Below are positions 20,935 through 54,209 of a stretch of DNA of 64,000 nt, piece by piece (the first letter of the stretch is position 1; every line of letters starts with the position of its first letter). A program made the position numbers and the translations under genes. Origin of the DNA: Actinomycetota bacterium (lineage in GTDB: Bacteria; Actinomycetota; Thermoleophilia; RBG-16-64-13); the NCBI GenBank assembly GCA_036795215.1, contig DAIRFC010000004.1, positions 4,822 through 68,821 of the forward strand, written 5' to 3'. The notes under the pieces are model-generated. The model was given only the letters and a program-made list of their open reading frames with translations, did no database searches and was not told the DNA's origin.

Positions 20935-23733
20935 CTAACAGGTCCCTCCTGACGGAGTATGCGTGCGCGTCCAGACGCGCCGGATCCACTTCTCGATCTC
21001 CACGATGACGTGGATGCCCACGGCCGATCCCAAGATCCAGGCCCACGCTATGCCATCCAGACCTGTGGTGCCGAACAGCTTGTTCATGCCGGGTAGATAC
21101 GTGAACAGCATCTGCAACCCGATCATGACGGCCACGCCGGCGAAGAGCAGGCGGTTGCTGAAGAAACTCCGGCTCCACGACGGACGTGTCAGCGAGCGGC
21201 AATTGAATAGGTAGAGCATCTCGCCGAAGACGAAGACGTTCACCGCCACGGTGCGCGCGTAGTCGAGACCGTGCCCTTCACGCTCGAAGTACTCGAAGAG
21301 CCCGAAAGCCGCCGCCAGCAGCAGCGCGCCAACTATCACGACCCGGCCCATGAGTACTCTGTCGAGGATGGGAGATTTCGGGGCACGGGGCGGTCTGTCC
21401 ATGATGCCTATCTCTTTGGGCTCGAAGGCAAGCATGAGGCCCAACAAGACCGCTGTGGTCATATTGACCCAGAGGATCTGCACAGGCAGGATCGGGAGGG
21501 CCACGCCGGCGAACACGGCGGCCAGGATCACCAAGCCCTCTCCTAGGTTGGTGGGGAGAGTCCAGGCGATGAACTTGGTCAGGTTGTCGAAAACCCCGCG
21601 GCCTTCTTCCACCGCGGCCTCTATGGAGGCGAAATTGTCGTCGGTGAGGATCATGTCGGCGGCTTCTTTGGCCACCTCCGTCCCCGTGATGCCCATGGCG
21701 ACGCCGATATCGGCCTGTCGCAACGCCGGAGCGTCGTTGACCCCGTCGCCCGTCATGGCGACCACATGACCCTGGTGTTGCAGTGCATCGACCAGGCGTA
21801 GCTTCTGCTCGGGTGTGACGCGGGCGAAGACGTAGGTCTTTTCGGCCGTCTGAACGAGATCGGCATCGTCAATGGCCTCCAGCTGGCTGCCGGTGAGAGG
21901 CTCGATCTCGGTGGTGGGGTCGCAGCCCGGCTCGCGCAGATTCAACTGTTGGGCTATGGCGAGTGCCGTCAAGGCATGGTCGCCGGTTATCATCTTCACC
22001 TGCACGCCTGCCCTGTGACAGGCCTCGATGGCCTGCAGGGCCTCTTGGCGCGGCGGGTCGATCATGCCCTGAAGGCCGAGGAAGAGAAGGCCGTCATCCA
22101 CGTCTTTGTGGGTGATCTCGTCGACGTCTTCCGATACAGCTTTTCGAGCGAAGGCAAGTACCCTCAGGCCCGACGAAGCCATGTCTCTGGCCAGCCGGTC
22201 TATCTTCTCGGCGTCCAGGGGTCTCGTGGAGCCATCCGTGGCGAGCTCGTTGGAGCACCGGGCGACTACCTTCTCAATAGCGCCCTTGACGTAGGCCACG
22301 TGCACGAAGACCGGCCCGTCGGTCTCTTTGACGGAGTGCAACGTCGCCATGTACTGATGCTCCGACTCGAACGGCACGGTGTCTAGGCGGGGGAAGCCAT
22401 GCCGCACCTCTTCGCGGTTCATCCCGGCCTTTGCCGCGGCCACGAGCAGAGCGCCCTCGGTGGGGTCTCCTTGCACACGCCACTGTCCGTCTTCGTGGTA
22501 GAGCGAGCTGTCGTTACAGAGCACCCCCGCACGTAGCAGTTCGGCGAGGGTCTCGTCTCTGCCGACCAGTGTGGAGGCCTCCAGAGCCTCGGAAGCCCCA
22601 GTGGCGTCGGCCGTCTCGGCTGCTTGGATGGTCCCCTCGGGTGAGTAGCCACCGCCGGTGAGCGTGTATGCGTGATCCTGGGTCACGACCCGCTGCACCG
22701 TCATCTGGTTCTCGGTGAGGGTGCCCGTCTTGTCGGAGCAGATGACGGTGGTGCTGCCCAGGGTCTCCACGGCGGGCAGTTTGCGGATGATGGCCCGGCG
22801 GTTCGCCATGCGGGATACCCCGATGGCCAGGGTGATGGTCACGGCGGCCGGCAGTCCTTCGGGTATGGCTCCGACGGCAAGCGCTACGGCTGCCATGAAC
22901 ATCTCCACGGCGCCCTCGCCCCGCAGGATGCCGACGACGGCGGTGACGATGGCGAGTCCCAGGATGACGAACAGCAGTACCTTGCTGAAATGGGCGATCT
23001 TGCGGGTGAGAGGCGTCTTGAGATCCTCGGCCTCGGCGATGAGATGAGAAATGCGGCCTACTTCGGTCTCGTCGCCGGTGGTCACCACAACGCCGGCTCC
23101 CTGGCCTCCGGTGACGAGCGCGGAAGCGTAGGCCATGTTGACACGGTCGGCCAGTGGCGTGTCTCCGTCGAGGGGCGCGGAGTGTTTCTCGACAGGGATG
23201 GACTCGCCGGTGAGCGCCGACTCGTCTATGCGAAGATCGCGGCTATACGTGAGGCGCATGTCGGCCGGCACTTTGTCGCCGGCATGTAGCACGACTACGT
23301 CACCAGGCACGAGTTCCACAGCCGAGAGGTGCACCCGCCGCGCGTCGCGTATCACCGTGGCTTCAGCGGTCATGGAGCGAGAGAGCGCGTCGATGGCCTT
23401 GACGGCCTTGGCCTCCTGCAGATAACCGATGATGGCATTGACGACGACCACCCCGAAGATGACCCCGGCGTCCACCCACTCTTGGAGTATCGCCGTGACC
23501 GCACCCGCGACGATGAGGATGATCACCAACGGCTGGTTGAACTGGGCCAAGGCCCGCTTCAGAGGGCCTGCGCTCTTCTGTGGGGTTATGGAGTTCGGTC
23601 CATACTCCTCAGACCGGGCCTTCACTGTTTCGGATGTGAGACCTCGGTCGAGGTCGGTATCGAAAAGGCCCACGATCTCGTCGGTCTTCAGTCGGTGCCA
23701 TTCCGATCCCGGTTGAGGCTGGGGCCCCGGCAT
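20935..23733 (-). CDS. cation-transporting P-type ATPase (P2/PMCA-SERCA-like)
   Basis: DKTGTLT phosphorylation motif, TGES, GDGVNDAPAL and about ten TM helices. Start set at internal ATG 23733 (GGGAGGA RBS). The upstream 221 codons of the ORF are Arg/Pro-rich and overlap the helicase gene. Confidence 0.85.
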   Translation of the reverse strand: MPGPQPQPGSEWHRLKTDEIVGLFDTDLDRGLTSETVKARSEEYGPNSITPQKSAGPLKRALAQFNQPLVIILIVAGAVTAILQEWVDAGVIFGVVVVNAIIGYLQEAKAVKAIDALSRSMTAEATVIRDARRVHLSAVELVPGDVVVLHAGDKVPADMRLTYSRDLRIDESALTGESIPVEKHSAPLDGDTPLADRVNMAYASALVTGGQGAGVVVTTGDETEVGRISHLIAEAEDLKTPLTRKIAHFSKVLLFVILGLAIVTAVVGILRGEGAVEMFMAAVALAVGAIPEGLPAAVTITLAIGVSRMANRRAIIRKLPAVETLGSTTVICSDKTGTLTENQMTVQRVVTQDHAYTLTGGGYSPEGTIQAAETADATGASEALEASTLVGRDETLAELLRAGVLCNDSSLYHEDGQWRVQGDPTEGALLVAAAKAGMNREEVRHGFPRLDTVPFESEHQYMATLHSVKETDGPVFVHVAYVKGAIEKVVARCSNELATDGSTRPLDAEKIDRLARDMASSGLRVLAFARKAVSEDVDEITHKDVDDGLLFLGLQGMIDPPRQEALQAIEACHRAGVQVKMITGDHALTALAIAQQLNLREPGCDPTTEIEPLTGSQLEAIDDADLVQTAEKTYVFARVTPEQKLRLVDALQHQGHVVAMTGDGVNDAPALRQADIGVAMGITGTEVAKEAADMILTDDNFASIEAAVEEGRGVFDNLTKFIAWTLPTNLGEGLVILAAVFAGVALPILPVQILWVNMTTAVLLGLMLAFEPKEIGIMDRPPRAPKSPILDRVLMGRVVIVGALLLAAAFGLFEYFEREGHGLDYARTVAVNVFVFGEMLYLFNCRSLTRPSWSRSFFSNRLLFAGVAVMIGLQMLFTYLPGMNKLFGTTGLDGIAWAWILGSAVGIHVIVEIEKWIRRVWTRTHTPSGGTC

Positions 23734-23879
23734 GTGTGTCCTCCCTCGTGGGTGTCGGTGTGCCGCCCTAGGGGGGCTTTGACGGTCGGTCCTGGTCAGC
23801 TCGGATATTCTATCTACCCGTCGGGTTCCCGATTTACGCACGGCTCCCACCCATCGGCGGGAGCCGCCCCGACTCTCTG

Positions 23880-26045
23880 CTAGAGCCACTCCTTGAGCCG
23901 CCGCCGGATGTCGTCGGTGGTGACGGGGCCTTGGGCCCCTGGCGTGCCGGGCCCGTCCGGAGGGCCCGTTGGTCCACCGATGAGGTCGGCCGCGGTGCAG
24001 AGATCCATGGTGTGCCGCACCCGGGCAGAGACGAAACGGGTGGGCTGCGAGTAGCCGTGGACGTCGCTGAAACTGCGCGGGTGGGTGTAGTAGCGCAACG
24101 GGTGGCAGACGTACAGCCAGTCTTTGGCGCGGGTGAGGGCCACGTAGAACAGACGGCGTTCTTCTTCGATCTCTTCGAGCCTGCCGGTGGCCATGTCCGA
24201 CGGGATGTTGCCGTCGGAAGCGTGGATGACGAAGACCACGTCCCACTCGAGGCCTTTGGCGGAATGCATGGTGGAGAGGATGAGGAAGTCTTCGTCGAGC
24301 AGTGGCGGTCCGGCAAGGTCTTCGGTGTATGCGGGGGGATCGAGGGCGATCTCGGCCAGGAACCGGGCGCGGTCGGGAAAGCGCCCGGCCATCCACTCGA
24401 GTTGCTCGAGATCCATGAGTCGTGCGCGTGAATTGTCGTAGAGGCGTTCAAGGAGGGGCGCGTAGAAGAGGCGGACGCGTTCGATCTGTGAGGCTAGGTC
24501 GCCCGGTTCACGCTCGGTAAGACCGGTCATGAGAGACACCAAGCCGGCCCAAGCTTCTGCCGAGGCAGGGGACGGGGCGGGGCAGCCGGTCCAGGCTGCG
24601 AAGCCGGCGGAGGCCCCGGAGGGATCTGCCTCCGGCGTGCCGCGCCCGGTGTTGCCTGTCAGGCGGTCCATGAGGCCCCGGGCCTTCTTGGGCCCGACGC
24701 CTGGGAGCAACATGAGGAGCCGCGTGCCGGCCATCAGATCGCGGGGGTTCTCCGCCAGGCGCAGGAACGCCATGAGGTCTTTTACATGGGCTGTCTCCAC
24801 GAAGCGCAGCCCTCCATACTTGCGGAAAGGGATGTTGCGTCGCGCGAGCTCCAGCTCCAATGTCAGACTGTGATGAGAGGCCCGGAAGAGCACGGCTTGG
24901 CGCCGCAGGGCCAGGCCGGACTCGCGGTGTTCGAGCACCTGATGGATGACGAACTCCGTCTGCTCGTCTTCGTCGTCACAGGTGACGAGCTGCGGCCTGG
25001 CGCCATCCGGCCGCTGCGACCACAGGTTCTTGGCGTGTCGCTCGGCGGCTTCCGAGATGACCCCGTTGGTGGTATCGAGGATGGGCTGGGTGCTGCGGTA
25101 GTTCTGCTCCAAGGTGACGACGCGGGTTTCCGGGAACTGTTGTGGGAAGTCGAGGATGTTGCGGACCGTCGCCGCCCGGAACGAGTAGATCGCTTGGGCA
25201 TCGTCGCCGACGGCGGTCAGGCGGATGCCACCCGGGCAGAGCATCTGGAGGATCTCGGCCTGCAGGCGGTTGGTGTCTTGGTACTCATCGACGAGAACGC
25301 AGTCGAACCGGCTTCTGATCGAGCGGGCCGCGGCGGCGTCGGTCAGCAGACCGTGCCAGAAGAGCAGCAGGTCGTCGTAGTCGAGCACGTTGTGGTCCGC
25401 CTTGTGATCCACATAGGCGGCGAAGAGACGGCGCAGGTCGTCGATGTCGTCTTTGCACCAGGGGAAGTCGGCCTCGACAGTCTGGTCGACAGGCTCGCGG
25501 GCGTTGACGCAGCGGCTGTAGATGTCCATACAGGTGCCTTTGAGTGGAAAGCGGCGGTCGCTCTTGGCTAGGCCCAGCTCGGTGCGGAGGACTCCCAGAA
25601 GATCTTCGGCGTCTCCGCGGTCGAGGATGGTGAACGAGGGCTCCAGGCCGATGGAGCGGCCATGGAGGCGCAGGAGTCGAGTGCCCACGGCGTGGAATGT
25701 GCCGCCCCAGACCCTGCCCGATGCCGGCGTCGTTGCGGTGTCTGTGCGACGCGATTCGGCCTCCAGACGCCTGAGTATGCCGTCCACGCGGCGGAGCATC
25801 TCGCTTGCCGCCCTGCGCGTGAAGGTGAGCAGCAGGATGCGGCCCGGGTCGGTGCCGGTGGCGATCTTGTACGCGACGCGGTGCGCGAGTGTGGCAGTCT
25901 TACCCGTGCCGGCTCCGGCGACGATGAGGAGCGGCTCACTACCGTGCAGCACCGCCTCACGTTGCTGCTGGTTGAGCTCGGCCAGGATCGCCCCGATGGC
26001 GGTCTCGTCGGTGCCCTTTCCCTTCCCGGTGGGGGTGCTGTCCAC
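23880..26045 (-). CDS. UvrD/PcrA/Rep-family ATP-dependent DNA helicase
   Basis: Walker A AGAGTGKT, TFH and QDTN motifs, and a UvrD C-terminal domain. GTG start. Confidence 0.85.
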   Translation of the reverse strand: MDSTPTGKGKGTDETAIGAILAELNQQQREAVLHGSEPLLIVAGAGTGKTATLAHRVAYKIATGTDPGRILLLTFTRRAASEMLRRVDGILRRLEAESRRTDTATTPASGRVWGGTFHAVGTRLLRLHGRSIGLEPSFTILDRGDAEDLLGVLRTELGLAKSDRRFPLKGTCMDIYSRCVNAREPVDQTVEADFPWCKDDIDDLRRLFAAYVDHKADHNVLDYDDLLLFWHGLLTDAAAARSIRSRFDCVLVDEYQDTNRLQAEILQMLCPGGIRLTAVGDDAQAIYSFRAATVRNILDFPQQFPETRVVTLEQNYRSTQPILDTTNGVISEAAERHAKNLWSQRPDGARPQLVTCDDEDEQTEFVIHQVLEHRESGLALRRQAVLFRASHHSLTLELELARRNIPFRKYGGLRFVETAHVKDLMAFLRLAENPRDLMAGTRLLMLLPGVGPKKARGLMDRLTGNTGRGTPEADPSGASAGFAAWTGCPAPSPASAEAWAGLVSLMTGLTEREPGDLASQIERVRLFYAPLLERLYDNSRARLMDLEQLEWMAGRFPDRARFLAEIALDPPAYTEDLAGPPLLDEDFLILSTMHSAKGLEWDVVFVIHASDGNIPSDMATGRLEEIEEERRLFYVALTRAKDWLYVCHPLRYYTHPRSFSDVHGYSQPTRFVSARVRHTMDLCTAADLIGGPTGPPDGPGTPGAQGPVTTDDIRRRLKEWL

Positions 26046-31585: not shown

Positions 31586-33391
31586 ATGACAGCGCCGGTG
31601 GCCCCGGCGGCCGAACGCGAGTCGGTCAAGAAGCTGTTCACCCGTCTCCATCAGGCGTATCGAGGTCTTCGGCTCTACCCACCCGCTCACCCTTCGGTCC
31701 GCACTGCTCTAGCGGACTTCTCACAGTCGGTGGCCGCCCATCTGGAGACCTGGGGTCCCATCCCGCTGGTGGTCGAGGAGGACCAGATACTCTTCCACGA
31801 CCAGTCGGTCTACTACCACGAGGACACCAGGAACAACCTGGCGTTCATGATGTTCCGCGACGGGATCCGGTTCCTTCTGTTCCAGCCCGGCATCATGCGC
31901 GAAGAGGTGGAGGCCTTCGTGGAGTGCCTCTCGCAGGCCGACGATCTGGCGGACATCGAGTACGACCTGACCACTGCTCTGTGGGAGCGCGATCTCCAGC
32001 ATATCGAGTATGAGGTGATCGATCCGTTTCTCGGCGCCGGCGGCGAGGCTATGCGTAACGACGCTATGACCGATCTGCGTGAGACCGTGGTCCGCCGTTT
32101 GGGTGAGCTCAAACCTGGCACTACCTCCGTGCAGGTAGTCAACCCTCCGGCCGGCGGCGATTCTCAGCCGGGAGGTAGGATCGTCGGGATAGGCGAAGAT
32201 GGTGCGAAGGGTGAGGAGCAGGGTGACGCCTCCCCACACTATGAGGAGGAAGACACCGGCGAGGACGACCAGGCTGAGGCCGGGAACGTGCTCGACACTG
32301 CTCTCATCACTCTCACCGACGAAGAGATCGAGCAAGGGGAGCAGGCTGTCGCCGAGCTCGCACAGACCACGCTGTCGGACTTCGCGGTGGTGGTGCTTGA
32401 GATCGCGGGCAATCCGGACGATCCACCGGGGGGAGAGGACGTGCTGGCCCGCTCCATCGGCCTCGTGGTCGAACAGTATCTCGACACGCTCGATGTGGAT
32501 GGTCTCGCCCTCGTGGTAGACCGTCTTCAGAGTCTGCGTGATCAGGGACGTAGGTCATCGGACTTCGGGCGCCTTGCTTTCGGTCGGGCTATGAGCGCCG
32601 AGCGCCTTACCCGGTTGATCGACCACGGCAACCAGAAATCCGCGGATGAGACTGCTCGGGTAGAGGGGCTTCTTGCCCGAATACGCGAATGGATATACCC
32701 CGGCCTGCTGGATGCCCTCGCGGAAAGCGCGGACAAAGGGGTGCGAAAGACCGTGCTGGCTCTGCTGAACATGGAAGGCGGGGTGCCGGCGCGCTACCTC
32801 TGGCCTCTCATGGACGATGCACGGTGGTTCGTGGTCCGCAACGCGGTGCAGCTGGCCACGCGTTCGGGCGACCCGGAGCTTGTGGGCCATCTCAGCCGGT
32901 TGCTCTCTCACCCCGACGCCCGGGTCCGGCGGGAAGTCGTACGCAGTCTGGACACGGTGGGCGGCAGCCAAGCGGCGGCACTGTTGGCCAAGGCTCTGGC
33001 CGACGATGACTCTTCAGTGCGGACTCTCACGGCGTACGCACTGGCGCGCCATGGCAACCGCGGCCAGGCCGCTGCTCTTGAAGCGCAGGTGGGGTCCCGC
33101 GACCTGGACGGCCGTTCGTCTGAGGAAGTGAACGCTCTCCTCTTTGCCTACGCGAGTCTGGGCGGAGAGACCACGGTGGAAGTCCTCAACAAGATGTGGA
33201 AGCGCCGGTTGTTCGGCACCCGTTCCATGACGGTCCGGATGGCGGCGGTACAGGCCCTGGCCGCCGTGGACACACCGGCTGCCCGGGCGGCGTTGGAGTC
33301 GGCCGCCAAGACGGGAGACGCTCAGTTGCAGAGGGTGGCTGCGCGCGCTCTGAATGCGGTGCGGACCGGTGCAAAGGGGGTGGGGGCGTGA
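31586..33391 (+). CDS. hypothetical protein with C-terminal HEAT (PBS-lyase-type) repeats
   Basis: C-terminal roughly 200 aa has repeated ..D..VR..A..AL..G motifs. Acidic low-complexity linker around residues 200-260. N-terminal roughly 190 aa unassigned. Start at ATG 31586 (AGAGG RBS). Confidence 0.6.
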   Translation: MTAPVAPAAERESVKKLFTRLHQAYRGLRLYPPAHPSVRTALADFSQSVAAHLETWGPIPLVVEEDQILFHDQSVYYHEDTRNNLAFMMFRDGIRFLLFQPGIMREEVEAFVECLSQADDLADIEYDLTTALWERDLQHIEYEVIDPFLGAGGEAMRNDAMTDLRETVVRRLGELKPGTTSVQVVNPPAGGDSQPGGRIVGIGEDGAKGEEQGDASPHYEEEDTGEDDQAEAGNVLDTALITLTDEEIEQGEQAVAELAQTTLSDFAVVVLEIAGNPDDPPGGEDVLARSIGLVVEQYLDTLDVDGLALVVDRLQSLRDQGRRSSDFGRLAFGRAMSAERLTRLIDHGNQKSADETARVEGLLARIREWIYPGLLDALAESADKGVRKTVLALLNMEGGVPARYLWPLMDDARWFVVRNAVQLATRSGDPELVGHLSRLLSHPDARVRREVVRSLDTVGGSQAAALLAKALADDDSSVRTLTAYALARHGNRGQAAALEAQVGSRDLDGRSSEEVNALLFAYASLGGETTVEVLNKMWKRRLFGTRSMTVRMAAVQALAAVDTPAARAALESAAKTGDAQLQRVAARALNAVRTGAKGVGA

Positions 33392-47334: not shown

Positions 47335-47814
47335 GTGGACACCACCAAGAAGACCATCATCGTATTCAGCGGCGATCTGGACAAAGCCATGGCTGCTTTC
47401 ATCATCGCCAACGGCTCGGCGGCGATGGGCGACCAGGTCACTATGTTCTTCACCTTCTGGGGGCTCAGCGTGATCCGGAAGCCCAGCAAGGTCAAGACCG
47501 CGGGCAAGACCTTTCTACAGACCATGTTCGGCAAGATGATGCCTCGCGGTACGGCAAGGCTGGGTCTCTCCAAGATGAACTTCGCCGGCATGGGCGCTCC
47601 CCTCATGAAGAAGGCCATGAAGGCCAAGAATGTCATGACTTTGGATGAGCTCATAGCCAGCGCGCGTGAGGAAGGGGTGAGGCTCGTGGCATGCACCATG
47701 TCCATGGACGTGCTCGGTTTCACCAAAGAAGAGCTACTGGACGACATCGAGTACGGGGGCGTCGGCTCCTACCTAGGCCACGCCGACGAGGCGAACGTCA
47801 ACCTCTTCATCTAG
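47335..47814 (+). CDS. dsrE: DsrE/DsrF (YchN-like) family sulfur-relay protein
   Basis: DsrE-fold pattern (IIVFSGDLDKAMAAFIIANGSAAMG..VTMFFTFWGL..VACTMSMDV). GTG start with AGGAG RBS. Last gene of the operon. Confidence 0.7.
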   Translation: MDTTKKTIIVFSGDLDKAMAAFIIANGSAAMGDQVTMFFTFWGLSVIRKPSKVKTAGKTFLQTMFGKMMPRGTARLGLSKMNFAGMGAPLMKKAMKAKNVMTLDELIASAREEGVRLVACTMSMDVLGFTKEELLDDIEYGGVGSYLGHADEANVNLFI

Positions 47815-48326
47815 GGGTTGTCGGCTCGCGCTTTCGCGGCGGCTTTCGCGGCGTGGTCGGCCAACCTCTGCATGGCCGAGGCTCTGGCCGCGAGAGATGC
47901 GGCCGCCATTTCCAGCGCCTCGATACCCGCCTGCGTGATCACGTAGACCCGTCGGCTGGGACCCGCCTCGGGGGTCTGCCATGTGGAGCTGACCAATCCC
48001 TGCTCTTCGAGTTCGCGGAGCAGACGATACATGCTCCCCGGGTCGATGCACACCAGGTCTGAGGCAAGCCCGCCTATCTGCTCGACCAGGTCATACCCAT
48101 GGGTCGTCGTCTCTGCCAGCGAGGCCAGTATGGAGGTCTCGAGCACGGCGCGCCGGTAACGGCCTCCACCGGCGCCACCACCCGGTCCGCCGCCCGCAGC
48201 GCGTCTCGTGCCCCCGAAGAAGCCCGGACCTGTGTCTGGACCTGTGCCGGCTCCCCCGGCCTGTCCCGCTGCCGCTCCGGCGCCTCTTCGGCCTCTGCCC
48301 TGGGGATTCCCGCTGCTCTTACCCAT
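47811..48326 (-). CDS. PadR-family transcriptional regulator with Gly/Arg-rich N-terminal extension
   Basis: PadR wHTH (..ILASLAETTTHGYDLVEQIG..MYRLLRELEEQGLV..RVYVITQAG). About 60-aa G/R-rich low-complexity N-terminus. Its stop shares the CTAG tetranucleotide with the dsrE stop. Confidence 0.7.
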   Translation of the reverse strand: MGKSSGNPQGRGRRGAGAAAGQAGGAGTGPDTGPGFFGGTRRAAGGGPGGGAGGGRYRRAVLETSILASLAETTTHGYDLVEQIGGLASDLVCIDPGSMYRLLRELEEQGLVSSTWQTPEAGPSRRVYVITQAGIEALEMAAASLAARASAMQRLADHAAKAAAKARADNP

Positions 48327-48714
48327 GGTCGCTCTCGACCTCGTCTCTCGTCACTCGCCCCAGCATGAAGTCATCGATCGCCTTGTGGAGGGCGGTCGCG
48401 GCGTGATTGGAGCAGTGCTGTTTTGGCTCAGGCAGACCACCGAGAGCGACCATGATGTCAATGTCGTCGAGCATAGAGGCCTCCTCCATCGTCATGCCGG
48501 TCGCCAGCTCGCTCATCATGCTGCAGGTGGCGATGGCAGCCGGGCAGCCGAACACCTTGTACTTCACCTCCGCCAGCAGATCGCCTTCAACTCGGATCCA
48601 GACCTTGAAGTAGTCTCCGCATTCGGGGTCGCCCACTGTTCCCACGCCGTCGGGGTTCTCGATCTCCCCGACGTTGCGTGGGTTCAGGAAGTGCTCGACG
48701 CTCAGTGGTCGCAC
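48319..48714 (-). CDS. IscU/NifU-N-like Fe-S cluster scaffold protein
   Basis: ..HFLNPRNVGEIENPDGVGTVGDPECGDYFKV..GCPAAIATCSMMSEL.. is the ISCU signature with its three Cys. Start uncertain (GTG 48714 proposed). Confidence 0.65.
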   Translation of the reverse strand: MRPLSVEHFLNPRNVGEIENPDGVGTVGDPECGDYFKVWIRVEGDLLAEVKYKVFGCPAAIATCSMMSELATGMTMEEASMLDDIDIMVALGGLPEPKQHCSNHAATALHKAIDDFMLGRVTRDEVESDHG

Positions 48715-49985
48715 ACGTTGTCCCCGGTCACAAGCGTCCCACTCAGGTACTGCCGCACCACCGCCTCGGGCTCTGCCGAGGGAGCTCCGATGATGACGCT
48801 GACTCCTTGTTCTGTGAACAACTGCTGAGCCCGTGAACCCATGCCACCGGCGATGATGAAACCGGCTCCCTTGTCGGCCAACCATGCGGGCAGCAGACCG
48901 GGCTCGTGTTCCGGGGCCGGGATGGTGGTCTTGTTCAGGATCTGCTTCGACTGTGGGTCGACGTCCACAAGCGTGAATTCTTGGCAGTGGCCGAAGTGGG
49001 CGCACAGGACGCCGTCACTCGTGGGCACGGCGAACCGCTGCACGGCGTCGATGTCCGCGGCCGGAGACGCTCCTGCGGCCGCCGCTGCGGAGCAAGACGC
49101 CGTCGCTGCGGGGCAGGATGCCGCTCCGGGGCAGGATGCCGCCACCGCGTCGTCGGCGGGCTCGTCCTCGAGTGCGAGGATGAACGGCAAGGCCTTCGCG
49201 AACTCCTGAGCCGCCGGGCTCTTGGAGTAGTGGTATATGTACGGACGGCCGGAGTCACCCGCTTCAACGATCGCGGGGTCGAGGGGGACGCTGGCCAACA
49301 GCGGCACTCCGGCCTTGGCTGCCATATCGGCGCCGCCGCCCTTGCTGAAGACGTTCGTCACCTCACCGCACTTCGGGCAGACGAACCCGGCCATGTTCTC
49401 GATCACGCCCAGCACCCTGAGGTCCAGAAGGGAACAGAAACTGATGGACCGTCGGACATTGTTGAGGGCCGTCTGCTGCGGGGTGGTCACGATGATCGCG
49501 CCGGCCATCTTGCCGATGGCCTGGCAGACCGCCAGTGGCTCGTCGCCCGTGCCGGGCGGCGAGTCGATGATCAGGTAGTCGAGTTCGCCCCATTCGACCT
49601 CGCCCAGGAACTGCTCGATAGCGACCGCCTTCATAGGGCCGCGCCACACGACGGCGGCGTCCTCTTCGCCGAGCAGAAAGGCGATGGACATCACCTTGAG
49701 GTTCTCGCCCACTTCCACGGGATGAAGCGTCTCTCCTTCGATCGTGACGGGCGAGCCGTTCAGGCCGAGCAGTTGGGGGACCGTGGGCCCGTGTAGATCG
49801 ACATCGAGAAGACCCACGCGCTTGCCCTCGAGGGCAAGCGAGGTGGCCAGATTGACCGAGACGGTGCTCTTGCCAACACCGCCCTTGCCCGATAGGACTA
49901 TGATCTTATGCTTGATCTGGCTCATCTTCTCCCGCACCGCGGGCGCCCGATCGTTGCCTTGCTGTGATTGGTGCGCGCAATCCAT
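48702..49985 (-). CDS. Mrp/NBP35 (ApbC) P-loop ATPase fused to C-terminal NifX/NifB-like cofactor-binding domain
   Basis: Deviant Walker A SGKGGVGKST and CPxC-like CPKC motif of Mrp/NBP35. Ala/Ser/Cys-rich linker. C-terminal domain ..VLCAHFGHCQEFTLVDVD..GFIIAGGMGSRAQQLF.. of the dinitrogenase FeMo-cofactor-binding (NifX/NafY) family. Start chosen at ATG 49985 (AGAGG RBS); alternatives are GTG 50030 and ATG 49925. Confidence 0.75.
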   Translation of the reverse strand: MDCAHQSQQGNDRAPAVREKMSQIKHKIIVLSGKGGVGKSTVSVNLATSLALEGKRVGLLDVDLHGPTVPQLLGLNGSPVTIEGETLHPVEVGENLKVMSIAFLLGEEDAAVVWRGPMKAVAIEQFLGEVEWGELDYLIIDSPPGTGDEPLAVCQAIGKMAGAIIVTTPQQTALNNVRRSISFCSLLDLRVLGVIENMAGFVCPKCGEVTNVFSKGGGADMAAKAGVPLLASVPLDPAIVEAGDSGRPYIYHYSKSPAAQEFAKALPFILALEDEPADDAVAASCPGAASCPAATASCSAAAAAGASPAADIDAVQRFAVPTSDGVLCAHFGHCQEFTLVDVDPQSKQILNKTTIPAPEHEPGLLPAWLADKGAGFIIAGGMGSRAQQLFTEQGVSVIIGAPSAEPEAVVRQYLSGTLVTGDNVCDH

Positions 49986-50237
49986 GCTTATGCCTCTGCT
50001 TTCTTTAACATCTCGTCGAGTCTTTGCCACATGTCTCGTATCTGATCGGCGGCCTGACTGCCGCCGTACTCCACAGGAGCTCGTGTGCGGCGCACAGGTA
50101 CAGAGCCACCCGGGCCGTCAACGAGCGCGAGGTCGAGCCCCGATCACGGGGGCCAGAGCCGAAGCCTCGTTCCTCATCGGAGTGACGAGTTTACCCGAGT
50201 TCTCGCTGCCGATGTACACGCCTCGCACCTACGACCC

Positions 50238-50480
50238 TCATAGTCCCTCGAGCTCTCTGATTCGCTGCTCGATAGTCTCCAGCACCGACTTCAACCGTTC
50301 GGATTCGCTCTTGAGAAGGGCGACCTCCTCGTCGGGTCCAAGGATGTTGTCGGGTCCCGGCGGTTCATGTGTGGCCGGTGCCCCTTCGGCGACGCAGATA
50401 CGGTCACAGCAGCCGTAGCCGCCCCCCGTCTTGCACCCACACTTGGCACCGAGTGGGCCGGTCACATCTCCTTTGGGCAT
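50238..50480 (-). CDS. DUF5320 family protein
   Basis: MPKGDVTGPLG..CGC..GGGYGCC N-terminus and a C-terminal coiled coil (LKSESERLKSVLETIEQRIRELEGL), as in DUF5320. ATG 50480 with GGAG RBS. Confidence 0.7.
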   Translation of the reverse strand: MPKGDVTGPLGAKCGCKTGGGYGCCDRICVAEGAPATHEPPGPDNILGPDEEVALLKSESERLKSVLETIEQRIRELEGL

Positions 50481-50540
50481 CTTGAGTCTCCTTGATACAC
50501 GCCGGTGCGTCGACGGCCGGCACCGCATATGAGCCACGGT

Positions 50541-50900
50541 CTACCAGTGGCCGTCCACGTCGGCGGCCGGGGCCTGCTCGAGACTTCCCGCCTCGAATCG
50601 GTCGATCGCTTCCGCAACGGTTCCCGCCGGGGCCAGATAGACTTCGACGCCGGCGGCGTTGAGCGCCCTGAAGGCCTTCGGGCCGCAGTGCCCGGTAAGA
50701 AGCACGGTGGCTTCGTTGTCGATGACTCTCTGGGCTGCCTGGATCCCCGCACCCTGTTCGGCGTTCATGCCGGCCAGGTTGTCAACAGGGAGTACGGTCC
50801 GCTCCGGGAGGTCCACCACGAGCAGGTAGTGCGCCCGCCCGAAGCGCTGATCCACAGCGCTCGAAAGATCAGGGCCTGCCGATGTCACGGCTATTCTCAC
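50541..50900 (-). CDS. NifX/NifB-like dinitrogenase FeMo-cofactor-binding family protein (stand-alone)
   Basis: MRIAV.S.G..L.S.VD.RFGRA.Y.L.VD.. and ..VLLTGHCGPKAFRAL..AGVEVY.. pattern. GTG start with AGAGGAG RBS. Confidence 0.7.
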   Translation of the reverse strand: MRIAVTSAGPDLSSAVDQRFGRAHYLLVVDLPERTVLPVDNLAGMNAEQGAGIQAAQRVIDNEATVLLTGHCGPKAFRALNAAGVEVYLAPAGTVAEAIDRFEAGSLEQAPAADVDGHW

Positions 50901-50917
50901 GTCGTTCTCCTCTCTTC

Positions 50918-51481
50918 TCAGGGTGCACGGTAACGGCCGCGCGTCCCACTTCGATCACTCCGTCCACGGCCGCCGCCCGCGCCACCGCCGCCTCCGCACC
51001 CCGGACCCTGGCCGCCTCGCGGGCCTTGTCCCTTCCCTTGGCCTCTTCCTCCTCCACGACCTTGTCCAGCTCCGCGACCTGGACCTCTACCAAGGCCGGA
51101 TGCCGCAGAGCCGTCGCGGCTATCGGTCGGCGGCGTATCAGGTGCGAAGCTTCGTTTGACGTCAAGGGCGAATCCCACCAGACTCAGGAGCCCTGAAAAG
51201 AATCTCTGGGCGGGTGTGATAGAGCTCTGGGCGGGCGCGACAAGGGGAGGTGCAACGTCGGGGATGATGGCCGGCAGTCCGGCCTTCTCCGTGCGAACGG
51301 GAAGCTCGTCAGGCTCCATGATGATAGCGCTCGTGAGACACGCATCCACGCATCGTCCACACGAGGTACAGAGGTTTTCGTCGATGAAGGCGGTGTCACC
51401 GCGCATGGTGATCGCCTCGCGGTTGCAGCTGTCTATGCAGACCCCGCAGCCTGTACAGAGGTTCTCGTCGACGTACACCAT
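50918..51481 (-). CDS. 2x[4Fe-4S] ferredoxin with about 60-aa Gly/Arg-rich C-terminal tail
   Basis: CTGCGVCIDSCNREA and CTSCGRCVDACLTSA motifs. Tail GRGPGRGAGQGRGGGRGQGKGQGPRGGQGPGCGGGGGAGGGRGRS. ATG 51481 with GAGG RBS. Confidence 0.7.
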   Translation of the reverse strand: MVYVDENLCTGCGVCIDSCNREAITMRGDTAFIDENLCTSCGRCVDACLTSAIIMEPDELPVRTEKAGLPAIIPDVAPPLVAPAQSSITPAQRFFSGLLSLVGFALDVKRSFAPDTPPTDSRDGSAASGLGRGPGRGAGQGRGGGRGQGKGQGPRGGQGPGCGGGGGAGGGRGRSDRSGTRGRYRAP

Positions 51482-51540
51482 GTCAGCCTCACATCTATAT
51501 GCAGTTAGCATCTATATGAAAACATCATCAGTTCCCAACG

Positions 51541-52512
51541 TCAAGGGGCCGGCTTATCCGTGGAGCCGGTAGGCGCATAGAAAGTGCGGCCTGCCAGCGT
51601 CTCCGGGCTGATCTGCTTCTCCGCGAGGAGGATGTCCAGGCGCTTCAAGACATCCAGCACGTGCAGGCCAAGCCCGGCCGCGATATCGTCGGCCGTGCAC
51701 GGACGCCTGGCCAGTAGGGCAAGGATGCCGGCATCGTCGGTCGCTCCGGCGGCGTGGTGTTCCGACCTGCTCTTGGTGAAGTCGCAGATGACCTCGACAT
51801 CACGCGAGAACAGGCCTGCGAGGGCGTGCATGCGCTCTTCCGGCAATGCGTGCACGAAGCCCTCGACCGGAGGGCGGCTGGCCGTGTTCAGCTGGACCCG
51901 GGTCGGAGCGATCTGCTCAACCAGCTGCGCGATTTTCTCGACCTGCGAGGGCGTGTCGGTCAAACCTGCCAACAGCATGACTTCCAGCCACACTTGCCCG
52001 TCGAAGCGCCCGGTGAAGGCGGCGAGCCCGTCGACCATGAGATCGAAGGAGATCGACGGGTCGGGACGGTTGACCTGCTCGAACATCTCCGCGTCACCAG
52101 CGTCGAGCGACGGGAGTACCAAGTCTGCCTCCGAGAGCTCTTCCTGTACTTCTTCCATCCACAACAGCGAACCGTTGGTGATCATCGCCACAGGAATGTC
52201 GGTCATCCCTTTGATGAGCCGGATGAGCCGGCCGATCCCGGAATGCAGCGTGGGCTCGCCCGACCCGGCAAGGCTTATGTAGTCGGGAGTGTCTCCCGCC
52301 GCCAGATGGCGCGCGATCCCGGCCTGCACCGCGTCGACAGGGACGTATTCGCGTCGCTCGGTCGTCTTGTTGGTCGTACGCCCAAGCTGGCAGTAGACGC
52401 AATCGTAGGTGCACGTCTTATAGGGTACGAGGTCTACGCCCAGTGACCGGCCCAGCCGCCTTGACGGGACCGGTCCGTAGATGTAGTCGTCGACGTGTTG
52501 TGTCGTGCTCAC
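51541..52512 (-). CDS. radical SAM protein (subfamily not assignable)
   Basis: CxxxCxxC motif CTYDCVYC preceded by YGPVPSRRLGRSLGVDL. GTG 52512 (GGGAGAGG RBS) overlaps the TAG stop of the upstream CoADR gene by 1 nt. Confidence 0.7.
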   Translation of the reverse strand: MSTTQHVDDYIYGPVPSRRLGRSLGVDLVPYKTCTYDCVYCQLGRTTNKTTERREYVPVDAVQAGIARHLAAGDTPDYISLAGSGEPTLHSGIGRLIRLIKGMTDIPVAMITNGSLLWMEEVQEELSEADLVLPSLDAGDAEMFEQVNRPDPSISFDLMVDGLAAFTGRFDGQVWLEVMLLAGLTDTPSQVEKIAQLVEQIAPTRVQLNTASRPPVEGFVHALPEERMHALAGLFSRDVEVICDFTKSRSEHHAAGATDDAGILALLARRPCTADDIAAGLGLHVLDVLKRLDILLAEKQISPETLAGRTFYAPTGSTDKPAP

Positions 52513-54209
52513 TACCTCTCCCGGGAGTACGGCCAGGCCATGATGCCACCCTCCATGACCCGCACGTTCTTCCAACCATTCGCCTCGAGAACCAGCGCGG
52601 CTTCGTAACCTCGCAGGGAGATCTTGCAGAAGCAGATGATCTCGGCGTCTTTGTCCTCGGGTAGTTCGTGCAGGCGTTTACGCAATGCACCAAGCGGTAT
52701 CAGCGTCTCGCCGATACCCAACCGCATGGCCTCGAACTCGTCGGGATTGCGTACGTCAAGAAGGAAAACGGGCGCCTTCGAATCGATCTTGCTCTTGACC
52801 TCGACCGATGAGATGCCCTTGAGCCGGCCTTTCAACTTGTTTTGCATCAGGTGGGCCGTAGCGATGAAGTGGTCTATGGCCAGCGAGAACGGTGGCGCGT
52901 ACGGTAGGTCGGAGTTGACGAGGTCTTCGACCGTGAGCCCGCCCTGGATAGCCATGGCCCACTGCGCGATCTGTTTAGATACCGCGCCTGGGCCGACACA
53001 CTGGGCGCCCAATACACGTCCGGTGGAGCGGTCGGCGATCATCTTGGTGACCAACAGCTTGCCTTCCATGAAGCCCGGTTTGTCAGGGCTTGCGTTGATC
53101 ACGGTCATGATGTCATCAAAGCCGTTGGCGCGGGCTGTGCGCTCGGAAAGCCCCGTGGTGCCCGCGGCGTAGTCGAATATCTTGCAGATGCCGGTGCCGA
53201 TACTCCCTGGGAAGGTCACGGTGTTGCCGAGCACGGCGTTCTCGCCGGCCACGCGTCCCTCGAGATTCGCCAAGTCTCCGTAGGGGGCGTGCACCTGCTT
53301 GCCGGTGATCAGGTTCTTGATCTCCACGCAGTCGCCGGCCGCGTAGATACTGGGGTCAGACGTCTGCATGTACTCGTTGACGACGATGCCCCCGGTAGCG
53401 CCGATGTCCAGGCCCGTTTCGCGCGCCAGCTTGCTGTTCGGCTTCACGCCGATGGCGATCACAGCGAGCTCGCAAGGGAGCTCGGTCCCGTTGGCCAGCT
53501 TGACTCCCACCAGCTTGCCGTTCTCACCCAGGAAAGCCGCCAGGCCGTTGTCGGTGAAGACGTTGATCGACTGGCCCAAGTGCATCTCGATGAGCTTGGC
53601 CATCTCCCAGTCGAGAAAGGTGAGCAGCTGAGGCAGGAGCTCGACCACGGACATCTCGATACCGGCCAGATGCAGCGCCTCGCATGTCTCGATGCCGATA
53701 AGACCGCCGCCGATGACCACCGCCTTCGTGATGGTCTTGTCGTCGCGTATCTTGCGCAGATAATCGGCATCGCGGATGGTCTGAAGAGTCGTGATGCCCT
53801 CAAGGTCGCTTCCAGGCACCGGTGGGATGTTGGGGAGCGCGCCGGTCGCCAAGACCAGCGAGTCATACGGAACCTCGTCGGTCGCGCCGGTTCTGAGATC
53901 GCGGCAGAGCACGGTCTTCTTCGTCCGGTCGATGGAGAGCGCCTCGGTCTCGGTACGTGCCACGACGTTCTTGGCGTTCATATAGTAGATGGGGTCGCGG
54001 ACAACTCCGGTCGCGCTACAGAGCAGCGCATTGCGGTCGTCGAAGAAACCGCCCACATAGTAGGGGTAACCGCACGAAGCCATCGAGAGCTCAGGGATCT
54101 TCTGTATGAGAGTGATCTCCGCGTTCTCGTCGATGCGCCTGGCTTTCGCGGCGGCCTTGGGGCCGGCCGCAGAACCGCCGATGACTACTATCTTCTTTCG
54201 GTCGCTCAT
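52512..54209 (-). CDS. CoA-disulfide reductase / NAD(P)H-dependent persulfide reductase-like flavoprotein with C-terminal rhodanese domain
   Basis: FAD motif IVVIGGSAAGPKAA. CoADR-type active Cys (SMASCGYPYYVGG). Second NAD(P)H Rossmann. C-terminal rhodanese with catalytic loop CFCKISLRG. ATG 54209 with AAGGA RBS. Confidence 0.8.
   Translation of the reverse strand: MSDRKKIVVIGGSAAGPKAAAKARRIDENAEITLIQKIPELSMASCGYPYYVGGFFDDRNALLCSATGVVRDPIYYMNAKNVVARTETEALSIDRTKKTVLCRDLRTGATDEVPYDSLVLATGALPNIPPVPGSDLEGITTLQTIRDADYLRKIRDDKTITKAVVIGGGLIGIETCEALHLAGIEMSVVELLPQLLTFLDWEMAKLIEMHLGQSINVFTDNGLAAFLGENGKLVGVKLANGTELPCELAVIAIGVKPNSKLARETGLDIGATGGIVVNEYMQTSDPSIYAAGDCVEIKNLITGKQVHAPYGDLANLEGRVAGENAVLGNTVTFPGSIGTGICKIFDYAAGTTGLSERTARANGFDDIMTVINASPDKPGFMEGKLLVTKMIADRSTGRVLGAQCVGPGAVSKQIAQWAMAIQGGLTVEDLVNSDLPYAPPFSLAIDHFIATAHLMQNKLKGRLKGISSVEVKSKIDSKAPVFLLDVRNPDEFEAMRLGIGETLIPLGALRKRLHELPEDKDAEIICFCKISLRGYEAALVLEANGWKNVRVMEGGIMAWPYSRER

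Follow-up and report, generated by a model that had tools for sequence, protein, structure and literature searches.

An ORP-type operon with two Gly/Arg-rich protein tails

We examined a 64,000-nt window, the whole stretch of DNA analyzed here, from an Actinomycetota bacterium (GCA_036795215.1; contig DAIRFC010000004.1, positions 4,822 to 68,821 of the forward strand). Its minus strand carries an operon in the order radical SAM protein, ferredoxin, NifX-like protein, DUF5320-like protein, MrpORP, NifU, and PadR-family regulator, the last of these being the final gene, and the operon is surrounded by Hdr-like, DsrE2, and CoA-disulfide-reductase genes. Two of the encoded proteins were found to carry long Gly/Arg-rich segments, namely the PadR-family regulator (171 aa; 47811-48326, minus strand) at its N-terminus and the ferredoxin (50918-51481, minus strand) at its C-terminus. 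Judged from sequence comparison and structure prediction, the two tails are translated, disordered, and polycationic, and they appear to be selected for their composition together with a few short motifs. All of the folded domains of the operon are acidic, with isoelectric points (pI) of 4.1-4.9.

The locus is an ORP-type metal-sulfide/Fe-S cluster, as its MrpORP lies above the NCBIfam cut-off with the expected motifs and its NifX-like protein is nearest to the solved structure 2WFB. The MrpORP (Orp9-type; 48702-49985, minus strand) is a fusion of an Mrp/NBP35 P-loop ATPase with a NifX-like domain (IPR003731), and scored 508.2 bits against NF041136 (cut-off 450) with the full model, positions 1-365, covered. 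The hallmark of this protein is a CXHFGHCE motif opening the NifX-like domain and a CDH motif closing it (PMC6345978); the window protein has CAHFGHCQE, IPAPEHEPGLLP, and a terminal VCDH. The NifX-like protein (50541-50900, minus strand; PF02579, 4.8e-21) is an ORP (Orp8)-like single-domain protein of 119 aa without a tail. Its best solved relative was 2WFB, the ORP of Desulfovibrio gigas (E 2.7e-21), followed by TM1290 and MTH1175.

The PadR N-terminal extension

The extension of the PadR regulator comprises residues 1-60 (48147-48326, minus strand), and it contains 41% Gly and 14% Arg with a net charge of +8. It precedes a recognizable PadR core, in which the Pfam domain PF03551 was matched over residues 66-139 (63.9 bits against a gathering score of 27; 1.4e-17) and which Foldseek aligned to PadR structures with a probability of 1.00 and TM-scores to the targets of 0.78-0.86. 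The AlphaFold2 (AF2) model was confident in the core and gave a predicted local distance difference test (pLDDT) score below 50 at residues 6-52, with helix alpha1 beginning at residue 54, inside the motif GGGRYRR. The core has a net charge of -5, and with the extension the pI of the protein shifts from 4.9 to 9.4.

We then considered whether the extension could be a product of a mis-called start or stop codon, an artefact that the earlier note on this DNA had itself named as a possible refutation. The PadR ATG overlaps the NifU stop codon (ATGGGTAA), and an extension of 30-64 aa is present in the called N-termini of 89 of the 120 listed homologues, the rest being called shorter. Across these 89 orthologues the motifs RGRGRRGAG, PG-x-CGG, and GGGRYRR are conserved, and residues R11, R14, and G53-R59 range from at least 90% conserved to invariant. 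In 13 of 14 syntenic loci from metagenome-assembled genomes (MAGs) of Gaiellales, Thermoleophilia, and Actinomycetota, the frame stays open upstream and these motifs can be read in it; one of these open-frame loci has a deposited PadR protein that begins at an internal GTG. In the fourteenth locus (L007), the contig stops approximately six codons upstream of the conserved PadR motif. A mis-called start or stop is ruled out by the overlap of the ATG with the NifU stop, the open frame, and the conserved N-termini, and the roughly 60-aa N-terminal extension described in the earlier note was borne out as an in-frame, conserved, and predicted disordered segment.

The Cys of the PG-x-CGG motif is found in 89% of the PadR orthologues, and the window protein has Phe at this position. 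It was also noted that Cys93 of the core (LVCID), located just before the recognition helix, is invariant; together with the extension Cys this would give four Cys per PadR dimer, a possible metal or cluster site. In a natural PadR variant with 82% identity (P0002), an in-frame deletion has removed 25 aa from the center of the extension but left both flanking motifs, so the central part of the extension is tolerant of length changes. Two more distant PadR paralogues encoded outside of ORP operons lack the extension. The core of the window protein, a winged helix with a single C-terminal helix, is that of the PadR subfamily-2 regulators (LmrR, Rv3488, and BC4206). The solved PadR relatives are 96-114 aa long and have no N-terminal extension, whereas the window clade adds the 30-64 disordered cationic residues and the invariant Cys93.

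The ferredoxin C-terminal tail

The open reading frame (ORF) of the ferredoxin extends to position 51511 (197 aa), but its homologues begin at M11 (MVYVDENLC), including one with 98% identity (P0121), which gives a protein of 187 aa. The protein consists of a 2x[4Fe-4S] domain with Fer4 family matches over residues 11-71, a linker rich in Pro, Ala, and Ser, a helix, and the Gly/Arg tail, and this architecture is common to 20 homologues with identities down to 26%. The tail (ORF residues 131-197; 50921-51121, minus strand) contains one Cys, located in the motif GPGCGG, and the last 65-77 residues or so of the protein contain 39% Gly and 16% Arg. Averaged over 22 sequences, the ferredoxin tails contain 28% Gly and 21% Arg and have a net charge of +12. 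With the tail, the pI of the window ferredoxin shifts from 4.1 to 8.4. The AF2 model placed a helix at residues 100-121 and predicted the tail to be disordered; this model was poor overall (mean pLDDT 49.7) and was not used beyond these two points.

The helix preceding the tail (ORF residues 100-121; 51149-51214, minus strand) is amphipathic to hydrophobic, and its pattern (..LSGLLS..F.LDR+) is conserved across the 20 homologues. Its sequence (..RFFSGLLSLVGFALDVKR..) has a mean hydrophobicity of 0.43 and a hydrophobic moment of 0.44. This conservation extends across phyla, and the helix could serve as an anchor to a membrane or to a partner protein.

At the DNA level, both tails are encoded by mixed Gly and Arg codons, with a G+C content at third codon positions below that of the neighboring genes. 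In the DNA of the PadR extension, Tandem Repeats Finder (TRF) reported no tandem repeat, and in that of the ferredoxin tail it found nothing beyond weak repeats of 9 nt and 12 nt. A recent slippage or microsatellite origin, which the earlier note had also listed as a way in which its proposal might fail, was therefore ruled out for both tails by the mixed codons and the near absence of TRF repeats. The ferredoxin tail, put at roughly 60 aa in the earlier note and at about 65 aa here, was likewise confirmed as an in-frame and predicted disordered segment that homologues retain down to 26% identity. Both tails are present in orthologues, and the proposal that they are conserved was upheld; they are probably functional.

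We assessed how specific these segments are within the window. The best 40-aa stretch of the ferredoxin tail reaches 75% Gly plus Arg, the highest value among all six-frame translations of the 64-kb sequence. For the PadR segment the corresponding value is 57-60%, and as translations of this DNA (63% GC) in the wrong frame often reach 55-62%, composition alone is weak evidence in the case of PadR. Among approximately 60 probable genes in the window, only those of PadR and the ferredoxin were found to encode a Gly/Arg-rich segment in the true frame.

The DUF5320-like protein and the question of common origin

The earlier note had counted three Gly/Arg-rich tails in this operon, the third being assigned to the DUF5320-like protein (80 aa; 50238-50480, minus strand). 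Canonical DUF5320 proteins are indeed Gly/Arg-rich and end in a coiled coil: they begin with MPRGDGTGP-G-GPMTGR-AGYC-G, continue through a Gly/Arg/aromatic stretch ending in G-Y-R-N-R-F/Y, and close with the coiled coil. The window copy retains the coiled coil, but its N-terminal part contains 24% Gly and only 2% Arg, has a net charge of 0, and carries five Cys among residues 1-29 (GAKCGCKTGGGYGCCDRIC). When it was aligned to relatives of 114-118 aa, the Gly/Arg/aromatic middle present in relatives of 114-124 aa was missing and the C-terminal coiled coil was intact. The window copy is thus a shortened Cys-rich variant rather than a Gly/Arg-rich protein, and the operon holds two such tails instead of three.

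Its membership of the family is borderline. The match to PF17253 reached 25.0 bits against a gathering score of 27 and covered only model positions 1-29, and the N-terminal motif MPKGDVTGP and the coiled coil align with those of clear family members. An identical public protein (P0161) carries a precomputed PF17253/DUF5320 label, and proteins identical to the window copy are recorded on 22 public contigs. In the syntenic loci, DUF5320 occupies an operon position beside NifX. A full-text literature search returned no functional description of DUF5320, and the name surfaced only in two papers on unrelated subjects.

The order of elements in DUF5320 (RG-rich, G-x-C-G, G-rich, and YR-R) resembles that of the PadR extension by eye, and a common origin by domain shuffling from DUF5320-like sequences had been suggested. 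The PadR and ferredoxin tails nevertheless have neither the MPRGDGTGP opening of DUF5320 nor its aromatic residues or coiled coil, and the comparisons did not bear out this origin. The Pfam DUF5320 model gave no match at E<=10 to seven extension and tail sequences. A hidden Markov model (HMM) of the PadR extension returned negative bit scores both on DUF5320 N-terminal regions (z of 0.8-3.0 against shuffled sequences) and on ferredoxin tails (z of -0.8 to 3.0). Pairwise local alignments compared with composition-preserving shuffles gave z values of 1.3-2.8, and the PadR consensus and the window ferredoxin tail aligned with their Cys in register at z=2.8. The exception was the pair of ferredoxin tail and DUF5320 (z 5.1), a value which reflects a shared GRG periodicity that residue shuffling destroys, rather than alignable homology. 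An exhaustive profile search yielded 3416 DUF5320 representative clusters, and no PadR or ferredoxin fusions to DUF5320 were found among the best 150 of these 3416 family representatives. Common descent of the tails from DUF5320 is therefore not established by these comparisons, in which the similarity beyond composition appears weak. The traits that the tails have in common are composition, charge, disorder, and, usually, a single Cys set among glycines.

Recurrence of cationic modules in related loci

The gene order in syntenic actinobacterial loci is (CoA-disulfide reductase)-(radical SAM)-ferredoxin-NifX-(DUF5320)-Orp3-like-Orp4-like-MrpORP-NifU-PadR. A tailed ferredoxin, a DUF5320 protein, or both adjoin the NifX-like gene in all 12 loci that cover this part of the operon, as they do in the window. 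The window lacks Orp3 and Orp4, which are MinD-like ATPases with ferredoxin inserts and which are encoded by approximately 1.9 kb of intact genes at this position in the syntenic loci. A 250-bp gap between DUF5320 and MrpORP is occupied instead by pseudogene fragments of an Orp4-like MinD/ferredoxin ATPase (49991-50213, minus strand), which were detected by tblastn with the Orp4-like protein of locus L004. The two remnants, at 49991-50074 and 50136-50213, correspond to residues 280-307 (71% identity) and 153-178 (69% identity), respectively.

We further encountered such segments outside of the Actinomycetota. A locus from an Anaerolineae MAG (L017) encodes a tailed ferredoxin with the helix and a GRRRRRR tail (P0154), a DUF5320 protein rich in Trp, Gly, and Arg, and an Orp3-like gene. 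The same locus encodes two fusions: a 203-aa protein (L017 926-1537) that joins a NifX-like domain, a GMGRG-rich segment, a Pro-rich segment, and a DUF5320-like coiled coil, and a 162-aa protein (L017 1541-2029) in which the NifX domain is fused to the DUF5320-like coiled coil alone. These fusions suggest that the two halves of DUF5320 are separable modules and that the longer fusion represents an IssA-like architecture in bacteria. In another lineage, locus L020 encodes NifX, Orp3/4-like genes, DUF59, and a Zn-ribbon ferredoxin with an N-terminal Gly/Arg-rich segment. In clusters of the NifX/MinD type, cationic Gly/Arg modules are thus found repeatedly, carried by proteins as different as DUF5320, ferredoxins, and NifX-coiled-coil fusions.

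It was additionally noted that some proteins (P0146 and P0155; L020 6001-6567) combine a ferredoxin, a Gly/Arg-rich segment, and a CxCPxCG...CPxCG zinc ribbon. One of these zinc-ribbon ferredoxins is encoded directly after NifX, Orp3/4-like, and DUF59 genes.

Comparison with described systems

The closest documented precedent for the two tails is that of IssA (PF2025), an iron-sulfur storage protein of Pyrococcus furiosus that consists of an IPR003731 domain, a Pro-rich stretch, and a disordered, cationic Gly/Arg/aromatic tail (PMC5524996). The IssA tail holds the only Cys of the protein, is conserved in composition rather than in sequence, and has been proposed to wrap anionic thioferrate electrostatically (PMC5524996). 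By comparison with this published description, the features shared with the window operon are a disordered tail following a Pro-rich stretch, a high content of Gly and Arg, a high pI, a single Cys in the tail, conservation at the level of composition, and the association with a NifX-like domain (IPR003731) and with Fe-S metabolism. The host of IssA is a Thermococcales archaeon, whereas that of the window operon is an actinobacterium. The IssA clade has been delimited by a pI >=9, fewer than five Cys, and a Gly content of 20% or more over the last 40 residues (supplement, PMC5524996). Its members are further characterized by an IPR003731 domain in the polypeptide that bears the tail and by the binding and assembly of thioferrate nanoparticles. 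For the window ferredoxin, the last 40 residues contain 45% Gly, the tail has one Cys to which the Fe-S domain adds 8, and the whole-protein pI is 8.4 (8.4-10.2 among its relatives).

The second point of comparison is the Desulfovibrio ORP cluster (DVU2103-2109), with which the window operon shares an MrpORP that exceeds the equivalog cut-off, a NifX protein resembling ORP, and a dedicated regulator. Orp3/Orp4-like genes are present in the relatives of the window operon and lost from the window cluster itself. For the Desulfovibrio cluster the regulator is a sigma54 activator, and for the window operon it is PadR. The ligands described are an anionic Mo-Cu-sulfide cluster, bound non-covalently by ORP, and Fe-S, bound by the NifX domain of MrpORP (PMC6345978). 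The ORP proteins of Desulfovibrio associate physically in a complex, and MrpORP passes clusters to the ferredoxin-like Orp3/4; in D. vulgaris MrpORP has a polar location, and Orp3/4 bear MinD-like amphipathic helices (PMC6345978). The same study stated that an IssA-type cationic tail is missing from Orp9, and made no mention of a Gly/Arg-tailed ferredoxin or regulator (PMC6345978). The tail type itself is already known, and what is new here is the occurrence of IssA-like cationic Gly/Arg tails on the PadR regulator and the ferredoxin of an ORP operon.

We also compared the tails with RG/RGG proteins, using the spacing definitions of tri-RG and of di- and tri-RGG motifs in the eukaryotic literature. 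In eukaryotes, RG/RGG motifs are established nucleic-acid binders and are associated with phase separation. The window ferredoxin tail contains a tri-RG motif, as do 49 of 91 long PadR orthologues, but the window PadR has only a di-RG motif. No di-RGG or tri-RGG motif was found in the ferredoxin tail, the window PadR, or the 91 PadR orthologues. The likeness thus consists of disordered Gly/Arg repeats and tri-RG spacing; the difference is that the tails here lie in a bacterial Fe-S operon with no RNA-binding domain nearby. An AT-hook was not recognized in the PadR extension, as its RGRGRRGAG motif has no GRP core and no match to PF02178 was obtained at E<=10.

Taken together, the PadR and ferredoxin tails belong to a recurring group of cationic Gly/Arg(-aromatic) modules that also includes the canonical DUF5320 middle, the NifX-GR-coiled-coil fusions, and the IssA tail.

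Possible functions of the tails

We tentatively favor a reading in which the two segments are electrostatic, polyanion-binding tails, by which the ferredoxin and the repressor would be anchored to an anionic species of Fe-S or metal sulfide or else to the acidic assembly complex; it seems somewhat less than an even prospect that this is correct. It is favored by analogy, because of the IssA precedent, the metal-sulfide binding of ORP and MrpORP, and the acidic folded domains, with the tails turning PadR and the ferredoxin basic. As the polyanion we envisage an inorganic Fe-S or metal-sulfide anion that ORP/NifX and MrpORP handle, for example thioferrate-like (FeS2-)n or a thiometallate cluster; the strongly acidic assembly complex would be a second possible target. 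The ferredoxin tail could keep the electron carrier where clusters are assembled or stored, and the PadR tail could couple the availability or DNA affinity of the repressor to the level of the polyanion, providing feedback control of the operon. The single Gly-embedded Cys that is usual in such tails may act as an end ligand, a residue that the window PadR has lost. The earlier note had proposed a shared interaction of the tails, and part of this idea stands: a shared role is plausible, given that both tails occur in an ORP-type operon with acidic folded domains and that such modules recur, while the version with three members does not hold.

A bolder form of the polyanion-binding reading, which we regard as unlikely, is that the segments are IssA-type tails acting in trans, with the holding of iron sulfide or metal sulfide spread over separate proteins and with PadR as a new sensor of Fe-S status. 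The Cys-bearing cationic arm of PadR and its Cys93 would then bind the inorganic polymer or a cluster and thereby switch repression of the ORP operon.

Several observations weigh against tethering to a polyanion. The IssA tail shares a polypeptide with the NifX-like domain, whereas here the tails are found on the ferredoxin and PadR, and the ORP/NifX protein and MrpORP are without tails. The aromatic pattern (W/F/Y) characteristic of IssA and DUF5320 is missing from the window tails, with 3-5% compared with 17%. The sequence comparisons do not establish that the three types of tail are homologous. For IssA, too, the wrapping of thioferrate by the tail is a proposed model. DNA binding would account just as well for a cationic arm attached to an acidic DNA-binding core. 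Lastly, the operon may be partly decayed in the window genome, as suggested by the loss of Orp3/Orp4, the shortening of DUF5320 without its Gly/Arg middle, and the Cys-to-Phe replacement in the PadR extension.

The last but one of these points leads to the explanation that the tails are nucleic-acid arms, the PadR extension being RG/RGG- or AT-hook-like and raising DNA affinity and the ferredoxin tail binding RNA, DNA, or the nucleoid. The charges of the PadR core (pI 4.9, -5) and extension (+8), the position of GGGRYRR at the start of helix alpha1 beside the DNA-binding domain, and the tri-RG spacing, with its eukaryotic precedent in nucleic-acid binding, are consistent with it. However, the ferredoxin has no evident need for nucleic acid and yet carries the stronger tail, and does so across phyla; the solved PadR relatives of 100-112 aa have no such arm, and the AT-hook comparison was negative. 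Nor does this explanation account for why the Cys is conserved or why the arm is confined to ORP operons, outside of which the two distant paralogues are armless, and we consider it improbable. About as doubtful is the possibility that RGRGRRG, G-x-C-G-G, and GRYRR are docking peptides for a common acidic protein of the operon, such as the MrpORP dimer or ORP, with no inorganic polyanion involved. The position-specific conservation of the PadR extension exceeds what composition would require, all of the candidate partners are acidic, the Desulfovibrio ORP proteins form a complex and MrpORP hands clusters to Orp3/4 (PMC6345978), and the PadR consensus aligns with the window ferredoxin tail with Cys in register (z=2.8). 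Against this, the HMM cross-matches between tail classes were not significant, and the ferredoxin tails keep their composition and charge but not their sequence across lineages, so that non-specific electrostatics fits better than a specific docking motif.

Targeting to the membrane or cell pole appears less probable still. According to this explanation, the ferredoxin helix and the polybasic tail would bind anionic phospholipids near polar, MinD-like ORP machinery, and PadR would be sequestered at the membrane. The hydrophobicity (approximately 0.43) and moment (approximately 0.44) of the helix lie at the border of surface-seeking helices and the tail has a net charge of approximately +12, and both the polar location of MrpORP in D. 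vulgaris and the amphipathic helices of Orp3/4 would fit (PMC6345978). The PadR tail, however, has no adjoining hydrophobic helix, and DUF5320 and the NifX fusions bear Gly/Arg modules without membrane helices. A length of 65 residues also far exceeds that of known polybasic membrane patches. The remaining explanation, functionless low-complexity drift or an annotation artefact in a GC-rich genome, is largely refuted and very improbable. It could draw upon the off-frame translations that commonly reach 55-62% Gly plus Arg, the variable length of the center of the PadR extension together with the in-frame deletion in P0002, and the fact that some gene callers begin PadR at an internal GTG. It is contradicted by the invariant and near-invariant extension residues, the retention of the frame in 13 of 14 loci, the coupling of the ATG to the upstream stop, the lack of microsatellite structure, the persistence of the ferredoxin tails across phyla in a like gene context, and the lack of such a segment in any other gene of the window.

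Iron and sulfur storage and the sensing of their supply are poorly understood in anaerobes, and both the ORP complex and DUF5320 are without an agreed function. If cationic Gly/Arg tails do act as a portable handle of general use for anionic Fe-S or metal sulfide, DUF5320 would acquire a role open to testing, storage of the IssA kind would be tied to the ORP machinery of bacteria, and a transcription factor would be reading an inorganic polymer through a disordered arm. If the tails are instead DNA arms or docking peptides, a well-defined and conserved feature of one actinobacterial operon remains.

Other features of the window

Directly upstream of the ferredoxin lies a radical SAM gene (51541-52575, minus strand; PF04055, 9.5e-15), the product of which has a winged-helix-like C-terminal domain and scored far below the cut-off of every NCBIfam family. 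This gene is present in L001 and L012 and missing from L005 and L011. Its position suggested that the tails might belong to precursors of ribosomally synthesized and post-translationally modified peptides, an idea that was set aside because the radical SAM gene is missing from several syntenic loci that retain both tails. Next to PadR, the NifU/IscU-type Fe-S scaffold (48319-48720, start approximate, minus strand; PF01592, 2.8e-32) matched TIGR03419 at 3e-42, below the cut-off of that model. No inverted repeats that could serve as a PadR operator were found in three candidate promoter regions, and a promoter and terminator scan returned nothing meaningful.

Two further Gly/Arg-rich stretches were encountered in ORFs of the window. 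A fourth Gly/Arg-rich, Cys-containing candidate at 33196-33387 (plus strand; GPGRRGHTGCPGG...) makes up the 5'-terminal part of an HD-domain gene when its longest ORF is taken, and was rejected as an over-extension artefact, because the public gene call begins at 33388 and the upstream HEAT-repeat gene overlaps the segment. The stretch in the ORF at 20935-24396 lies approximately 180 residues upstream of the first recognized P-type ATPase domain (residue 233), and is probably an over-extension of the ORF as well.

Within MrpORP, tandem DNA repeats of 18 nt and 21 nt (49078-49142, minus strand) encode a linker rich in Ala, Ser, Cys, and Pro (AASCPGAASCPAATASCSAAAAAG), which joins the P-loop domain to the NifX-like domain.

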